Virus record (IMG/VR): IMGVR_UViG_648276656_000002
Coordinates: 1-9,963 of that record
Length of the DNA: 9,963 nt
Strand: one strand, 5' to 3'
Origin: a virus
Taxonomy: Duplodnaviria > Heunggongvirae > Uroviricota > Caudoviricetes
The notes under the pieces were generated by a model. It had not been told where the DNA came from. It searched no databases and saw only the letters and a list, made by a program, of their open reading frames with translations. The translations under genes and the position numbers were made by a program. Positions 310-7,449 of the stretch are shown here, piece by piece (position 1 is the first letter of the stretch; the number at the start of each line of letters is the position of its first letter).

Positions 310-1682
310 GACAGGATATCGAAGCGAGCGTTATCGGTGGCTTGCTGATTGGTGGATTAACACCAACCGCCAGCGACGTTCTGGCAACGCTGGAGCCGGA
401 AGCGTTTTCAATTCCGCTCTACCGGAAAGCCTTCGAAGTTATCCGCAAGCAGGCGAGAAACAGAAACCTAATCGACGCGCTGATGGTTGCCGAGGCGTGC
501 GGAGAGGAGCATTTCACGTCAATCCTGATGACCAGCAAAAACTGCCCGAGTGCCGCAAACCTGAAGGGATATGCCGGAATGGTCGCGGATAACTATCACC
601 GCCGTCTGGTGCTGGAAATCATGGATGAAATGCGTGAACCAATTCAGAGCGGAACCATCGACGCATCGAGTCAGGCGATGGATGAGCTTGTAAAGCGTCT
701 TTCAGCCATCAGAAAGCCCCGTGACGAGGTTAAACCGGTACGGTTAGGGGAAATCATCACCGACTACACTGACACGCTTGACAGGCGTCTGAGGAACGGA
801 GAAGAGTCAGATACCCTGAAGACCGGAATCGAAGAACTTGATGCCATCACCGGAGGGATGAACGCGGAAGACCTGGTGATAATCGCTGCTCGTCCTGGTA
901 TGGGGAAAACCGAACTGGCGCTGAAGATTGCCGAAGGCGTTGCAAGCCGCGTTATTCCTGGTTCTGACGTCCGGCGCGGAGTGTTGATTTTCTCGATGGA
1001 AATGAGCGCATTGCAGATTGCAGAGCGAAGCATTGCCAACGCCGGGAGGATGTCGGTTAGCGTACTGCGAAATCCTGCATCGATGGATGACGAAGGCTGG
1101 GCGCGTGTTGCTAACGGCATGAGTCAGCTTGCAGATTTGGATGTATGGGTAGTCGATGCCTCGCGGTTATCGGTAGAAGAAATTCGCTCAATCGCAGAGC
1201 GGCACAAACAGGAAAATCCAAACCTGTCACTCATCATGGCGGATTATCTTGGCCTGATTGAGAAGCCGAAAGCAGACCGCAACGACCTCGCAATTGCTCA
1301 CATCTCAGGAAGCCTGAAGGCGATGGCGAAAGACCTGAAAACGCCAGTTATATCCCTAAGTCAGCTTTCGCGCGATGTTGAGAAGCGACCAAATAAACGC
1401 CCGACAAACGCAGATTTGCGTGATTCAGGAAGCATTGAACAGGACGCAGACTCAATCATCATGCTCTATCGGGAAGCGGTATATGACGAGAACAGTAGCG
1501 CCGCGCCATTTGCTGAAATCATTGTGACGAAAAACCGTTTTGGCTCGCTTGGTACGGTTTACCAGCGGTTCTGCAACGGACACTTTGTTGCATGTGACCA
1601 GGATGAAGCCAGACAGATTTGCACAGCATCAAATGCACCTGCTGCGCGTGGCAGACGATATGCACAAGGGGCTGACGTATGA
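306..1682 (+). CDS. DnaB-family replicative DNA helicase (phage P22 gene 12-like)
   Basis: 458-aa ORF with Walker A ARPGMGKT at nt 888-911 and a DnaB-like N-terminal region. Shine-Dalgarno AGGGGG at 294-299. Stop overlaps the next ORF start (ATGA 1679-1682). Confidence 0.9.
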
Positions 1683-1762
1683 CCATCTACATCACTGAGC
1701 TGATAGCAGGCCTGCTGGTAATCGCAGGCCTTTTTATTTGGGGGAGGGTAAATCGTGGCTGA
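1679..1762 (+). CDS. Small hydrophobic peptide, 27 aa ([27 protein letters not shown]), hypothetical
   Basis: ATG overlaps the helicase stop (ATGA). One predicted transmembrane helix followed by a basic tail. Below the ORF-track length cutoff; found by manual reading. Confidence 0.3.
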
Positions 1763-1961
1763 GTTAATTTTCTCTGCATTGAGGATTCTCGGTGCTATGT
1801 GGATGGTGGCGACGTTCATTGTTGTTGCCAGCAGTTTTGTCCGGTTGGTAGGCGAAGGTAAAGACCTGGTGGGTGTGCTTTTCGGTAGCATTTTCCTGTG
1901 GGTGATTATCGGTGTTATGCCTGTTGTCGTAGCAAAAGTGGCGTGGCGTTTTGTGAGTTGA
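1755..1961 (+). CDS. Small membrane protein, 68 aa, two predicted transmembrane helices, hypothetical
   Basis: GTG start at 1755 preceded by GGGAGG at 1741-1746 with 8-nt spacing. Overlaps the 27-aa ORF by 8 nt. Strongly hydrophobic with two roughly 20-residue apolar segments. Confidence 0.5.
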   Translation: MAELIFSALRILGAMWMVATFIVVASSFVRLVGEGKDLVGVLFGSIFLWVIIGVMPVVVAKVAWRFVS

Positions 1962-1968
1962 GGTAACG

Positions 1969-2415
1969 ATGAAGCAAATATACATGCTTCGCAACGAAGC
2001 AATCAGAAATAACGCCATAGACGCAATACTCTCACTTCCCATCGACGACAAGTCACCTCATGAAGTCCACGTTAGAGAACCCAAACGCAGCAAAGCGCAG
2101 AATGACCGTATGTGGCCGATGCTGAACGATGTTTCGCGTCAGGTGCTATGGCATGGTCAACGGCTGGCGCCGGAAGACTGGAAAGACCTGTTCACTGCCC
2201 TGTGGCTTAAGACCAAAAAACTGGAGCAACGAAGTGTGCCTGGTATCGATGGTGGCGTTGTCATGCTTGGCGTGCGTACCAGCAAAATGCGAAAGGCCAG
2301 CATGACTGAGCTTATCGAAATCATGTTCTGGTTCGGCTCAGAGCGCAACGTGCGATGGAGTGATGACTCCCGGCGAGAGTATGAATGGTCACAACGAAAA
2401 GGGAAGGCTGCATGA
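1969..2415 (+). CDS. ninB: NinB (Orf-family recombination mediator)
   Basis: 148 aa. Motifs NDRMWPMLNDVSRQV and WHGQRL match the lambda NinB/Orf family as I remember it. GAGG ribosome-binding site directly upstream. Stop overlaps the next start (ATGA 2412-2415). Confidence 0.9.
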   Translation: MKQIYMLRNEAIRNNAIDAILSLPIDDKSPHEVHVREPKRSKAQNDRMWPMLNDVSRQVLWHGQRLAPEDWKDLFTALWLKTKKLEQRSVPGIDGGVVMLGVRTSKMRKASMTELIEIMFWFGSERNVRWSDDSRREYEWSQRKGKAA

Positions 2416-4649: not shown

Positions 4650-4834
4650 ACGCCACAATTCAAACGATACCAGAGCTTCTTATCCAGACACGAGGCAATC
4701 AGACCGAAGTGGCAAGGATGCTTTCCTGCGCAAGAGGAACAGTGCTCAAGTACAACCGAGACAGCAAAGGCGAGCGTCACGTAATAGTTAACGGCGTCCT
4801 GATGGTCAAACAGGGCAAAAGGGGAAGGCCATGA
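4646..4834 (+). CDS. ninH: NinH-like small DNA-binding protein
   Basis: 62 aa. GNQTEVARMLSCARGTVLKY ... VIVNGVLMV matches the lambda NinH HTH region from memory. ATGA overlaps at both ends (4646-4649 and 4831-4834). Confidence 0.75.
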   Translation: MNATIQTIPELLIQTRGNQTEVARMLSCARGTVLKYNRDSKGERHVIVNGVLMVKQGKRGRP

Positions 4835-5454
4835 GACTCGAAAGCGTAGCTAAATTTCATTCGCCAAAAAGCCCGATGATGAGCGACTCACCACGGGCTA
4901 CGGCTTCTGACTCTCTTTCCGGTACTGATGTGATGGCTGCTATGGGGATGGCGCAATCACAAGCCGGATTCGGAATGGCTGCATTCTGCGGTAAGCATGA
5001 ACTCAGCCAGAACGACAAACAAAAGGCTATCAACTATCTGATGCAATTTGCACACAAGGTATCGGGGAAATACCGTGGCGTTGCAAAGCTTGAAGGAAAT
5101 ACTAAGGCAAAGGTACTGCAAGTACTCGCAACATTCGCTTATGCGGATTATTGCCGTAGTGCCGCGACGCCGGGCGCAAGATGCAGAGATTGCCACGGTA
5201 CAGGTCGTGCGGTTGATATAGCAAAAACAGAGCAGTGGGGGAGAGTTGTTGAGAAAGAGTGCGGAAGATGCAAAGGCGTCGGTTATTCAAGGATGCCAGC
5301 AAGCGCCGCATATCGCGCTGTAACGATGCTAATCCCCAACCTTACCCAACCCACCTGGTCACGCACTGTTAAGCCGCTGTATGACGCTCTGGTGGTGCAA
5401 TGTCACAAAGAAGAGTCAATCGCAGACAACATTTTGAATGCGGTCACACGTTAG
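4831..5454 (+). CDS. Q: Late-gene antiterminator Q (lambda-type)
   Basis: 207 aa. The whole sequence (MRLESVAKFHSPKSPMMSDSPRATASD ... zinc-binding CRDCHGTGR ... CGRCKG) matches lambda Q as I remember it. Followed by a lambda-like PR'/qut. Confidence 0.95.
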   Translation: MRLESVAKFHSPKSPMMSDSPRATASDSLSGTDVMAAMGMAQSQAGFGMAAFCGKHELSQNDKQKAINYLMQFAHKVSGKYRGVAKLEGNTKAKVLQVLATFAYADYCRSAATPGARCRDCHGTGRAVDIAKTEQWGRVVEKECGRCKGVGYSRMPASAAYRAVTMLIPNLTQPTWSRTVKPLYDALVVQCHKEESIADNILNAVTR

Positions 5455-5496: not shown

Positions 5497-5525
5497 TTGA
5501 CTTTTTGAATAAAGTTGGGTAAATT
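5497..5525 (+). promoter_or_regulatory. Late promoter PR' with overlapping Q-utilisation (qut) site
   Basis: -35 TTGACT at 5497-5502, 17-bp spacer, -10 TAAATT at 5520-5525. Sits 43 bp downstream of the Q stop as in lambda. Near-consensus sigma70 elements. Confidence 0.8.
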
Positions 5526-5531
5526 TGACCC

Positions 5532-5725
5532 AACGATGGGTTAATTCGCTCGTTGTGGTAGTGAGATGAAAAGAGGCGGCGCTTACTACCGATTCCGCCT
5601 AGTTGGTCACTTCGACGTATCGTCTGGAACTCCAACCATCGCAGGCTGAGAGGTCTGCAAAATGCAATCCCGAAACAGTTCGCAGGTAATAGTTAGAGCC
5701 TGCATAACGGTTTCGGGATTTTTTA
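5532..5725 (+). ncRNA. PR' leader transcript (lambda 6S RNA equivalent), ending at tR'
   Basis: Runs from the predicted start about 7 nt downstream of the -10 to the tR' hairpin and U-tract. The sequence closely matches my memory of the lambda 6S region. The 5' end is approximate. Confidence 0.6.
5666..5725 (+). terminator. tR' intrinsic terminator
   Basis: Long-range stem AATCCCGAAAC (5666-5676) pairing with GTTTCGGGATT (5710-5720), with internal structure, followed by a T-run at 5719-5724. Confidence 0.8.
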
Positions 5726-5859
5726 TATCTGTGCAACAGGTAAGAGCATTGAACCCGCAGACCTCGCGGAATTGGTGAAAGGTGCCGCGCAGTGCTCTTA
5801 TCGTTGTGGTGAAGCTCAATGGCGAGCTAGCAGATAGGCGACAGTGAAAATACTAGTCA

Positions 5860-6176: not shown

Positions 6177-6500
6177 ATGAAGATGCCAGAAAAACATGAC
6201 CTGTTAGCCGCGATTCTCGCGGCAAAGGAACAAGGCATCGGGGCAATCCTTGCGTTTGCAATGGCGTACCTTCGCGGCAGATATAATGGCGGTGCGTTTA
6301 CAAAAACAGTAATCGACGCAACGATGTGCGCCATTATCGCCTGGTTCATTCGTGACCTTCTCGACTTCGCTGGACTAAGTAGCAATCTCGCTTATATAAC
6401 GAGCGTGTTCATCGGCTACATCGGTACTGACTCGATTGGTTCGCTTATCAAACGCTTCGCTGCTAAAAAAGCCGGAGTAGAAGATGGTGGAAATCAATAA
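6177..6500 (+). CDS. S: Holin S (class I, dual-start antiholin/holin)
   Basis: 107 aa, [22 protein letters not shown] ..., matching lambda S from memory. The Met1-Lys2-Met3 dual-start motif is present (ATG AAG ATG at 6177-6185). GGGGG ribosome-binding site upstream. Three transmembrane segments. Confidence 0.95.
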
Positions 6501-6960
6501 TCAACGTAAGGCGTTCCTCGATATGCTGGCGTGGTCAGAGGGAACTGATAACGGACGTCAAAAAACCAGAAATCATGGTTATGACGTCATTGTTGGCGGA
6601 GAGCTATTCACTGATTACTCCGATCACCCTCGCAAACTTGTCACGCTAAACCCCAAACTCAAATCAACAGCCGCAGGACGTTACCAGCTTCTTTCCCGTT
6701 GGTGGGATGCCTACCGCAAGCAGCTTGGCCTGAAAGACTTCTCTCCGAAAAGTCAGGACGCTGTGGCATTGCAGCAGATTAAGGAGCGTGGCGCTTTGCC
6801 GATGATTGATCGCGGTGATATCCGTCAGGCAATCGACCGTTGCAGCAATATCTGGGCTTCACTGCCGGGTGCTGGTTATGGCCAGTTCGAGCATAAGGCT
6901 GACAGCCTGATTGCAAAATTCAAAGAAGCAGGCGGAACGGTCAGAGAGGTTGAGGTATGA
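6484..6960 (+). CDS. R: Endolysin R (lambda-type lytic transglycosylase)
   Basis: 158 aa, [35 protein letters not shown] ..., matching lambda R from memory. Start overlaps the S 3' end; stop overlaps the Rz start (ATGA 6957-6960). Confidence 0.95.
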
Positions 6961-7394
6961 GCAGAGTCACCGCGATTATTTCCGCTCTGGTTATCTGCAT
7001 CATCGTCTGCCTGTCATGGGCTGTTAATCATTACCGTGATAACGCCATCGCCTACAAAGAGCAGCGCGACAAAGCCGCATCCATCATCGCTGACATGCAG
7101 AAGCGTCAACGTGATATAGCAGAACTAGACGCCAGATACACAAAGGAGCTTGCTGATGCTAACGCGACTATCGAAAGTCTCCGTGCTGATGTTTCTGCTG
7201 GGCGTAAGCGCCTGCAAGTCGCCGCCACCTGTGCAAAGTCAACGACCGGAGCCAGCAGCATGGGCGATGGAGAAAGCCCAAGACTTACAGCAGATGCTGA
7301 ACTCAATTATTACCGTCTACGAAGCGGAATCGACAGGATAACCGCGCAGGTTAACTACCTGCAGGAGTACATCAGGACTCAGTGCCTGAAATAA
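6957..7394 (+). CDS. Rz: Rz (i-spanin, inner-membrane subunit)
   Basis: 145 aa. The N-terminal transmembrane region [31 protein letters not shown] matches lambda Rz from memory; the periplasmic coiled-coil part diverges from lambda. Confidence 0.9.
7156..7341 (+). CDS. Rz1: Rz1 (o-spanin, outer-membrane lipoprotein) embedded in the +1 frame of Rz
   Basis: ATG 7156 preceded by AAGGAG at 7143-7148. Signal peptide ending in the lipobox-like VSAC with the Cys lipidation site, followed by a proline-rich mature region ([13 protein letters not shown]). The ORF-track start at 7150 is a TTG two codons upstream. Confidence 0.8.
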
Positions 7395-7425
7395 TTTTTT
7401 TGCAAATCACAAAGTCTATTTAATG

Positions 7426-7449
7426 AGCCTCGCGATGCGGGGCTTTTTT
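7426..7449 (+). terminator. Rho-independent terminator downstream of the lysis cassette
   Basis: GC-rich stem GCCTCGC (7427-7433) pairing with GCGGGGC (7437-7443), including one G-U pair, around loop GAT, followed by TTTTTT (7444-7449). Confidence 0.7.

Follow-up and report, generated by a model that had tools for sequence, protein, structure and literature searches.

The ninA/tR2 block and a 68-codon accessory gene where the replication and nin genes of a lambdoid phage meet

The stretch of DNA that follows the replicative helicase gene in the 9,963-nucleotide phage sequence analysed here (the window) is very probably a standard lambdoid replication/nin boundary, consisting of a conserved ninA/tR2 junction block and an independent accessory gene, orf68. 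By sequence match, the first of the two small open reading frames found there, of 27 codons, is ninA, and it carries the phage lambda tR2 intrinsic terminator within it. The second, of 68 codons, encodes an exact member of PHROG 1165, which on profile searches is a narrow enterobacterial prophage family. The region is thus mostly ordinary and already known, ninA being a long-known lambdoid frame and orf68 a catalogued, uncharacterised gene. An earlier note, made from the letters of the sequence, had held that neither frame could be assigned to a known family, and this did not survive comparison with profile collections, since the first frame fell to ninA (PHROG 5907) and the second to PHROG 1165. 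For annotation, the lesson is that a short hydrophobic ORF at a lambdoid replication/nin junction should be read first as tR2 plus the historical ninA frame, before a membrane toxin is considered.

Layout of the junction

The gene order, all on the plus strand, is helicase, ninA/tR2 block, orf68, ninB and onward to Q. The DnaB-type replicative helicase gene (positions 306 to 1682; PHROG 19) matched Pfam DnaB_C with E=9.5e-78 and the DnaB N-terminal domain with E=4.5e-13. Its TGA (1680-1682) is overlapped by the ATG of ninA as ATGA (1679-1682). The ninA frame (1679 to 1762) ends at TGA 1760-1762, inside the first three codons of orf68 (1755 to 1961; GTG 1755, TGA 1961), so that the two frames share 8 nt (1755-1762). 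Both overlaps are as the earlier note had described them. Seven nt past the orf68 stop begins the recombination mediator gene ninB (orf), at 1969 to 2415 (Pfam NinB, E=1.7e-48). The downstream context is that of a typical nin region followed by a late region, with Dam, NinF, an antirepressor, YbcO, RusA, NinH, Q, holin and Rz. The Q gene lies at 4831-5454, and a holin/endolysin/Rz cassette, which includes the phage's own PF05106 holin, lies at 6177-7394.

The tR2 terminator and the conserved junction block

The terminator scan identified an intrinsic (Rho-independent) terminator on the plus strand at 1708 to 1739. Its stem of 8 bp (1708-1715/1724-1731), with six G-C pairs, encloses a loop of 8 nt (1716-1723), and the U-tract TTTTATTT directly follows the 3' arm and continues through 1739. 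This terminator inside the 27-codon frame was absent from the earlier note. All 32 nt of the hairpin and U-tract (32/32) matched the stretch that separates ren from ninB in lambda, and every one of these columns was invariant in an alignment with lambda NC_001416, phage 21 and Nil3. The same sequence carries the GenBank feature 'terminator tR2' in HK620 (AF335538, 12330..12362) and in Nil3 (AM051322, 26..57), the 32-nt core was found in more than 119 viral contigs, and the sequence also serves as the terminator cassette in standard in vitro transcription templates. Folding of the hairpin alone gave -15.1 kcal/mol. The 61-nt segment around the hairpin folded no better than its shuffles (z = -0.78), and an Rfam gathering scan of the entire window returned no family, tR2 included. 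Since the shuffle energy test was null, the terminator call rests on identity with lambda tR2 and on the hairpin/U-tract architecture. In lambda, tR2 terminates E. coli RNA polymerase with an in vivo efficiency of ~0.9 at maximum (Li et al. 2015, PMC4824070), and N-type antitermination overrides it.

Compared with lambda, the leader and the Shine-Dalgarno sequence (SD) that flank tR2 are nearly identical, and the terminator occupies the same place, at the end of the replication module and the start of the nin genes in the rightward early operon. In contrast, the gene 5' of tR2 is a DnaB-type helicase here and ren in lambda, and the gene 3' of it is orf68 here and ninB in lambda. Two A-to-G differences (1703 and 1707) just 5' of the stem produce the rarer Ala10 allele of ninA in the window. 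The lambda nin5 deletion removes tR2.

The terminator is part of a junction block of ~69 bp (1679 to 1747), in which the leader ATGACCATCTACATCACTGAG is followed by a brief variable linker, then by the tR2 hairpin with its U-tract, and then by the SD that serves the following gene. Copies with few or no differences were seen in lambda, phage 21, Nil3, mEp213, HK620, HK630, SPN9CC and TL-2011a, with unrelated flanks, and this ~70-bp ninA/tR2/SD unit stays near-identical although no fewer than eight unrelated genes precede it and no fewer than eight genes follow it. Across 147 distinct contexts conservation began and ended sharply, at -29 and about +40 counted from the hairpin, and the 21-nt leader was conserved though it lies outside the hairpin. 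An ATG overlapping the upstream TGA was seen in 126 of 131 distinct contexts, and the ninA stop overlapped the following start in most downstream contexts observed, while five of the 131 lacked the ATG and yet kept the hairpin. The SD of the block serves whichever gene comes after tR2. In the window this SD, GGGGGAGGG (1740 to 1748), stands 6 nt 5' of the orf68 GTG, and its calculated duplex with the anti-SD, at -11.8 kcal/mol, is stronger than those of ninA (-6.8) and ninB (-7.4) and bears out the strong ribosome-binding site that had been proposed for the 68-codon frame. The slot just after tR2, which houses accessory genes, is hypervariable among lambdoid phages, and the mosaic genes around the block agree with the earlier description of this junction as variable between them. 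The block was sought between renD and emrE in the E. coli K-12 prophage DLP12 and is absent there, and DLP12 YlcH was rejected as a NinA.

Comparison of alleles indicates that the RNA structure of tR2 is under selection. Phages of the HK97/HK446/CUS-3 type carry the same leader and a T-run at the same place with another stem (AGGGGCTATT/AGTAGCCCCT), and one variant of this HK97-type stem shows a double change from T-A to C-G. Among canonical tR2 copies, all three stem substitutions (3/3) give G-U wobble pairs. In phages with an HNH endonuclease gene inserted in ninA, the hairpin and orf68 are both intact.

In the working that we propose for the region, RNA of the ninA/tR2 block would form the tR2 hairpin and U-tract, and polymerase arriving from the early rightward promoter without an antiterminator would stop there. 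Expression of the genes from orf68 and ninB through Q would have to await antitermination, making them delayed-early. We infer this dependence from relatives of the window phage, since its own promoter, nut site and N gene lie outside the window; phiv205-1 carries N. A terminator between the helicase and the downstream genes argues against simple co-expression of the two sides. On read-through transcripts, ribosomes that finish the helicase at its TGA could restart at the overlapping ninA ATG, melt the hairpin, and come to a stop at the ninA TGA, next to the orf68 GTG and its strong SD. Such a relay would continue the arrangement of the nin region, which Kroger and Hobom reportedly regarded as a 'chain of interlinked genes'.

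The ninA reading frame

The PHROG 5907 profile covers residues 1-26 of the 27 encoded by the first frame (E=1.9e-17), and the equivalent ORF is annotated 'ninA' or 'NinA' in phage 21, Nil3, HK620, SPN9CC and HK630. The T10 variant of the peptide is the UniProt 'NinA protein'; the exact Ala10 variant was absent from the protein collection, and DNA coding for the ninA peptide was found in 421 phage records. The NinA frames of lambdoid phages (phage 21 CAB39987, HK620 AAK28874, HK630 YP_007112589) have the same ATGA-type start overlap, the HK630 peptide is identical to that of the window at 26 of 27 residues, and in SPN9CC the frame shares the same 8 nt with the 68-codon ORF that follows it. The C-terminal tail of NinA reads RVNRG where the downstream gene is of the orf68 type, as here, and RGKS where it is ninB. 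A single segment of the 27-mer had a Kyte-Doolittle window mean above 1.6, in line with the single hydrophobic helix proposed earlier, and most of this hydrophobic stretch is encoded by the stem, loop and U-tract of tR2. A search of the literature on NinA found no function for it.

The ninA frame is probably translated, as judged from the SD that precedes it in eight contexts and from the active start of lambda NinA. Behind eight unrelated upstream genes an SD at the right spacing precedes ninA, each in the top 0.2-8% of background. The lambda NinA start has been described as 'not weak', mutation of the NinA RBS or AUG restored expression of an upstream reporter, and NinA translation cut the efficiency of lambda tR2 by only ~10%, with a maximum near 0.9 (Li et al. 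2015, PMC4824070).

These start signals weigh heavily against reading the 27-codon frame as an untranslated by-product that runs across the terminator and owes its conservation to tR2 and the downstream SD alone. The ends of eight unrelated upstream genes all hold an SD-like sequence at the correct distance (combined Fisher probability ~5e-8), and the lambda initiation site is used according to mutational evidence (PMC4824070). The ninA start overlaps the stop before it, the ninA stop usually overlaps the start behind it, and the conserved leader lies outside the hairpin. A by-product would nevertheless account for a block that is near-invariant at synonymous sites when the adjacent orf68 drops to 41-60% amino-acid identity, for the five contexts that keep the hairpin without an ATG, and for the frequent omission of the ninA ORF by curated pipelines; moreover, a GC-rich stem followed by a U-tract naturally reads as Ala, Gly, Leu, Phe and Ile. 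We give this explanation a very slim chance.

That NinA is instead a functional single-pass membrane micro-protein, acting at the membrane in lytic growth, with the terminator lying inside a true coding sequence (dual coding), appears possible but doubtful. It would fit the SD before the ATG in the eight upstream contexts and the activity of the lambda start (PMC4824070), as well as the form of the peptide, for the lambda-, HK97- and HNH-insert versions all consist of MTIYITE, LI(T/A)G, 10-13 hydrophobic residues and a polar/basic tail. The three independent sequences that follow the leader all encode hydrophobic stretches; none of the dinucleotide shuffles of the lambda segment reached its hydropathy, and for the remaining two versions the fractions that did so were 0.12 and 0.09. 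Variable sites in ninA numbered 7/3/12 at codon positions 1/2/3, a bias that is only suggestive (chi-square p ~0.06) and comes from few alleles, and the transitions in the stem that preserve G-U pairing fall on third positions, so that the constraints on RNA and peptide are inseparable. The non-synonymous changes in ninA are conservative (I>V, T>S, L>I, T>A), and leader alleles showed 8 synonymous against 7 conservative non-synonymous changes, but in three sequences a change in the loop produces L13Q, midway along the putative helix, and the C-terminal tail varies with the downstream gene. Further evidence against a functional peptide is that an HNH gene interrupts ninA throughout one group of Stx phages, that PGAP leaves the frame uncalled, and that the nin region is entirely dispensable in lambda (PMC10695390). 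Selection at the level of the peptide is favoured by some of the sequence data, and a reading that puts the terminator first does not need it.

A broader proposal, which we consider unlikely, is that ninA is a truly dual-coding element, under selection for translation as the SD in every upstream context would show, that it could act as a sensor because its frame has no stop codon on transcripts terminated at tR2, and that the block, being so conserved, is a homing site for the HNH endonuclease. If ninA were such a sensor, terminated transcripts would become non-stop messages and be broken down after recruiting tmRNA, which would lower expression of the replication genes, and on antiterminated transcripts the ribosome would complete ninA and pass on to the gene behind it. 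The hydrophobic product of 25-34 amino acids may, additionally or instead, be a functional membrane micro-protein. A ninA start kept translatable across contexts despite a working terminator would offer a compact natural case for the study of ribosome-terminator interplay and non-stop decay.

The 68-codon gene behind the terminator

The second frame, orf68, is a genuine gene. Its family contains 189 clusters, nearly all of exactly 68 amino acids, and 111 of the 120 homologues listed have exactly this length. The median dN/dS was ~0.33, entropy by codon position was 0.37/0.25/0.50, and 20 residues were invariant. Conservation of the reading frame in related phages, which the earlier note had put forward as a check, was clear for orf68, the sense frame being open in 52 of 52 intact alleles. 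Antisense frames were broken in 12 to 52 of the 52, and a 147-codon antisense ORF (1559..2002) was rejected for this reason. We also rejected a shorter version starting at an ATG (Met15), as given in the HK630 and phiv205-1 records, because the N-terminal 14 residues are conserved with Ala8 invariant, the SD precedes the GTG, and SPN9CC carries an ATG in place of this GTG.

Two segments of the 68-mer had a Kyte-Doolittle window mean above 1.6, and AlphaFold2 modelled it as a helical hairpin (helices 2-33 and 38-67, pLDDT 89.8), which together with the dN/dS sustains the two-helix membrane protein suggested in the earlier note. The product would be a small helical hairpin of the inner membrane, with a likely N-in/C-in topology that places the conserved G-K-D turn outside and the basic aromatic AKxAWRF tail inside. 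Searches of Pfam, NCBIfam and PADLOC with both peptides gave no match, and Foldseek comparison of the orf68 model with BFVD returned only generic helical hairpins (best E = 1.0). The literature on the 68-amino-acid protein yielded no function, and many records list the PHROG 1165 product as a hypothetical protein ('MULTISPECIES: hypothetical protein [Enterobacteriaceae]').

The earlier note had likened both peptides to membrane-targeting toxins, superinfection-exclusion proteins or host-modulating peptides, ideas that found no support in these family searches, in the promoter scan or in the fold. That orf68 should encode a toxin aimed at the membrane, form holin-like pores or act in superinfection exclusion is quite improbable. 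Its size and two-helix topology do resemble those of class II holins and small exclusion/immunity proteins, the conserved G13, W16, G44, W49, G53 and P56 fit helix-helix packing or oligomerisation, and the gene occupies an accessory-gene slot. Class II holins and pinholins such as S21 of phage 21 are about 68-71 amino acids long with two TMDs. Like these pinholins, orf68 encodes a two-helix membrane hairpin of similar length, but it has no sequence or profile similarity to them and no holin Pfam match, its C-terminal tail is short with no dual-start motif, and its place is among the delayed-early nin genes, 4.2 kb before the actual lysis cassette, in which the phage already has a canonical holin, endolysin and Rz; we do not class it as a holin. 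Nor do we class it with superinfection-exclusion or defence proteins, as it matched no such family and has no promoter-like site: a scan from the helicase to ninB, which as a promoter scan is weak evidence, found none. Exclusion by a lysogen requires that the gene be expressed while the prophage is repressed, and this is unlikely for a gene downstream of tR2 with no promoter-like site close by. Type I toxins of the Hok/TisB/Ibs kind are small, hydrophobic and accompanied by an overlapping antisense RNA and by translational repression; the scan found no antisense promoter-like site, and no antisense RNA or antitoxin partner was evident. Most likely, orf68 encodes a dispensable accessory protein of the lytic phase that acts on a target in the host membrane.

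The PHROG 1165 profile matched orf68 over 68 of 68 positions (E=6.5e-36), and a profile search of 1.84 billion representatives returned 15 matches only, each a small member of this family or a fragment of one. Length, start and position after tR2 are shared with HK75, HK629, HK630, HK022, Stx2 phage 86, mEp213 and SPN9CC. The family has two N-terminal allele types, that of the window and that of HK620/mEp213, joined to a common C-terminal third. In all 80 loci retrieved via orf68 (80/80), tR2 lay directly 5' of the gene. Distant relatives of 63-66 amino acids keep the pattern W..F..G.D..F.W..G..P..AK.AW; one of them follows the replication module in a different lambdoid-like phage, with no terminator before it in the one context examined, which suggests that orf68 is not obligatorily linked to tR2.

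Both ORFs recur in hundreds of phages and prophages, and orf68 is a widespread gene for a small membrane protein. A protein identical to that of the window was found on 802 contigs. Of 5426 complete E. coli genomes, 2026 matched the region, and 536 contained the whole segment from the end of the helicase through ninA and orf68 to the start of ninB.

The ninA frame and the tR2 terminator

The DnaB-type helicase gene (Pfam DnaB_C, E=9.5e-78) ends at position 1682 on the + strand and is followed on that strand by a 27-aa ORF (ATG 1679 to TGA 1762), whose start overlaps the helicase stop as ATGA, by a 68-aa ORF, orf68 (GTG 1755 to 1961), whose GTG lies 8 nt ahead of the stop of the 27-aa ORF, and by ninB from 1969 (Pfam NinB, E=1.7e-48). 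The SD of orf68, GGGGGAGGG, occupies 1740-1748 (+), with an anti-SD duplex of -11.8 kcal/mol. An earlier note had described the two overlapping small ORFs as hydrophobic; both are present with those overlaps, and both products are hydrophobic.

A terminator scan placed a hairpin inside the 27-aa ORF: an 8-bp stem (6 G-C pairs; 1708-1715/1724-1731) closing an 8-nt loop, then TTTTATTT. The block was aligned from the window, lambda, phage 21, Nil3 and mEp213, and the same ~69 bp, from the ATG to GGGGGAG, were found in all five, with hairpin and U-tract invariant. Upstream of the block, lambda and phage 21 have ren and the window has the helicase, and the downstream genes differ as well. Compared with lambda, the window block shows just two A-to-G changes, immediately 5' of the stem, and has other neighbours. 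The GenBank record of HK620 labels 'ninA' (12302..12385) and 'terminator tR2' (12330..12362), that of Nil3 has 'NinA' and 'tR2' on the equivalent bases, and 'NinA' is named in those of phage 21, SPN9CC and HK630. The peptide matches PHROG 5907 (E=1.9e-17), and UniProt lists its Thr10 variant as 'NinA protein'. Standard templates for in vitro transcription use the tR2 hairpin as their terminator cassette. Since the alignment, the GenBank names, PHROG 5907, the UniProt name and the identity of the hairpin agree, we assign the ORF to ninA, the frame historically counted in the 'chain of interlinked genes' (cited in PMC8022706). A folding-energy test of the hairpin region was not significant (z = -0.78) and Rfam held no model for the terminator; the putative terminator is therefore assigned from identity to lambda tR2 together with terminator architecture. 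The central hydrophobic stretch of NinA (11 aa) is the translated stem, loop and U-tract of tR2.

Conservation of the block and translation of ninA

The peptide-coding DNA of ninA was found in 421 phage records and the exact 32-nt core in more than 119 viral contigs. Across 147 distinct contexts, conservation steps up sharply at -29 from the hairpin, where the ATG lies, and drops ~40 nt past the hairpin start. In 131 distinct contexts the block adjoins at least eight unrelated upstream gene ends and is followed by at least eight different genes, including ninB, orf68 and a 108-aa protein. The slot directly 3' of the U-tract (loci L090-L208) is likewise occupied by eight or more unrelated genes: ninB, orf68, the 108-aa protein, whose N-terminus has a TM helix, and ORFs of 92, 71/75, 65, 90 and 60 aa. 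The start of the slot gene and the ninA stop overlap in most of the contexts, as ATGA, as GTGA or by 8 nt.

HK97/HK446/CUS-3-type phages retain the 30-nt leader, but their hairpin is another one, AGGGGCTATT...AGTAGCCCCT, and a T-run occupies the equivalent place; one variant of this hairpin has a T-A to C-G double change. In canonical copies, three of three stem substitutions yield G-U wobble pairs. In TL-2011a-like Stx phages a gene for a 203-aa HNH endonuclease interrupts ninA just 5' of the stem and leaves hairpin and orf68 intact. The alternative hairpin, the wobble-only stem changes and the hairpin kept beside the HNH insert point to selection on RNA structure.

The second ninA type (HK97 gp56-like, 32 aa) occurs at 601..699 of L210 (HK446) and in mEp506 (L209) and CUS-3 (L211), with the AGGGGCTATT/AGTAGCCCCT hairpin and T-run; its next gene is a Cys-rich 70-aa ORF, not orf68. 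The HNH insert was seen in IMGVR_UViG_2778261660_000008 (L280, 7530..8278), TL-2011a (JQ011316) and two E. coli genome matches (H166 and H174). It enters the block between ...CTAATAGCAGG and GGCCTGCTGG..., leaving a 34-aa chimeric ORF besides the tR2 hairpin and orf68, and the ultra-conserved block looks like an HNH homing site.

The ninA ATG overlaps a TGA in 126 of the 131 contexts, and an SD-like element with 6-8 nt spacing precedes it in all eight unrelated upstream coding ends. Anti-SD duplex energies of these eight ends rank in the top 0.2-8% against random positions in the same loci (Fisher combination, p ~5e-8). In constructs of Li et al. (2015), tR2 was preceded by 48 bp of natural lambda sequence that includes the NinA initiation site; expression of the upstream reporter was halved and was restored by RBS or AUG mutation, a loss ascribed to non-stop translation on terminated transcripts, while tR2 efficiency was only about 10% lower with NinA translation (PMC4824070). 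Thus ninA is probably translated.

Whether the NinA peptide itself matters is a separate question, on which the evidence is divided. Its variable sites number 7/3/12 at codon positions 1/2/3 and its non-synonymous alleles are few and conservative, which would fit a selected peptide, but the numbers are small and the wobble-preserving stem changes fall on third positions. Three independent sequences 3' of the shared leader all encode hydrophobic stretches; against this, a loop change gives L13Q, the C-terminal tail varies with the downstream gene, and the ORF is split in HNH-carrying phages.

The orf68 family

The full length of orf68 aligns with PHROG 1165 (E=6.5e-36), and the gene was found in 107 phage records, each time at the same position 3' of tR2; SPN9CC has the same 8-nt overlap as the window. 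The exact protein is on 802 contigs, named 'MULTISPECIES hypothetical protein', and homologues form 189 clusters at 90% identity, nearly all exactly 68 aa, from Escherichia, Shigella and Salmonella. We extracted 54 distinct alleles, 52 of them intact. The start is GTG in 52 of the 54 and ATG at the same place in one (SPN9CC type). Pairwise comparison gives a median dN/dS of 0.33, and the three codon positions have entropies of 0.37/0.25/0.50. In each of the 52 intact alleles the sense frame stays open. A 147-aa antisense ORF at 1559..2002 (-) extends over the end of the helicase gene, ninA, orf68 and the beginning of ninB, and shares its third codon positions with orf68; it was rejected as spurious because 12 to 52 of the 52 alleles show interruptions in the antisense frames.

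Twenty residues are invariant, among them G13, W16, the G35-K36-D37 turn, G44, W49, G53, P56 and the AKxAWRF tail. An AlphaFold2 model predicts two helices (2-33 and 38-67; pLDDT 89.8). The dN/dS value, the open frame and these helices bear out the two-helix membrane gene of the earlier note, and orf68 is a real gene with no assigned function. The alleles are mosaic: in 1755..1961, compared with HK620, mEp213 and SPN9CC, two divergent N-terminal types (about 40-60% identity) join a near-identical C-terminal third, with a breakpoint near codon 48.

A profile search of 1.84 billion representatives returned just 15 matches, four of them distant relatives of 63-66 aa with the same pattern, one of which is encoded 3' of the replication genes in a different lambdoid-like phage and has no tR2. 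The family thus appears narrow and positionally conserved, but not bound to tR2. The toxin and exclusion ideas previously raised for orf68, and a holin role, found no support, as no Pfam, NCBIfam or PADLOC model matched and a fold search gave no significant match. The positive-inside rule makes an N-in/C-in topology most likely, and the best-supported role is that of a dispensable lytic-phase accessory membrane protein.

Part of the region has a match in 2026 of 5426 complete E. coli genomes, and the entire helicase-end/ninA/orf68/ninB-start segment in 536; PGAP lists orf68 as hypothetical and leaves ninA uncalled. ninA and its terminator are textbook lambda features, and orf68 is a hypothetical family catalogued before. 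Three points remain of interest: the signs that every context keeps ninA translatable, the insertion of an HNH gene into the block, and the function of orf68.

Transcription of the region and the rest of the window

The block combines tR2, ninA and an SD for whichever gene comes next; orf68 encodes a membrane hairpin. In lambda, tR2 stops unmodified polymerase (PMC4824070), and the nin region with Q needs N antitermination and is dispensable (PMC10695390; PMC4824070). Early rightward transcripts of the window phage would likewise stop at about 1737-1739 unless antiterminated, so that orf68, ninB and the genes through Q would be delayed-early. On read-through RNA, ribosomes coming off the helicase would restart at 1679, traverse the hairpin and halt at 1760-1762, close to where orf68 has its SD and GTG. 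There are 25 nt between the helicase stop and the hairpin; since a ribosome more than about 27 nt away no longer blocks hairpin formation in the model of Li et al. (PMC4824070), the leader may double as a spacer. A scan found no promoter-like site near orf68.

The rest of the window is typical of lambdoid nin and late regions (Dam methylase, NinF, KilAC antirepressor, YbcO, RusA, NinH, Q, holin, lysozyme, Rz). No tRNA genes were found in the 720-bp gap from Q to holin. Directly 3' of Q (4831-5454) is TTGACT-17-TAAATT (5497..5525), and downstream of it, at about 5670..5730, a CCGAAAC...GTTTCGGG hairpin with a T-run; the two look like the pR' late promoter and tR' terminator of lambda-type phages. 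The strongest terminator-like site of the window, a 9-bp stem with 6 G-C pairs followed by TTTTACATCT, lies at 7425..7445 (+), shortly past the Rz gene (6957-7394).
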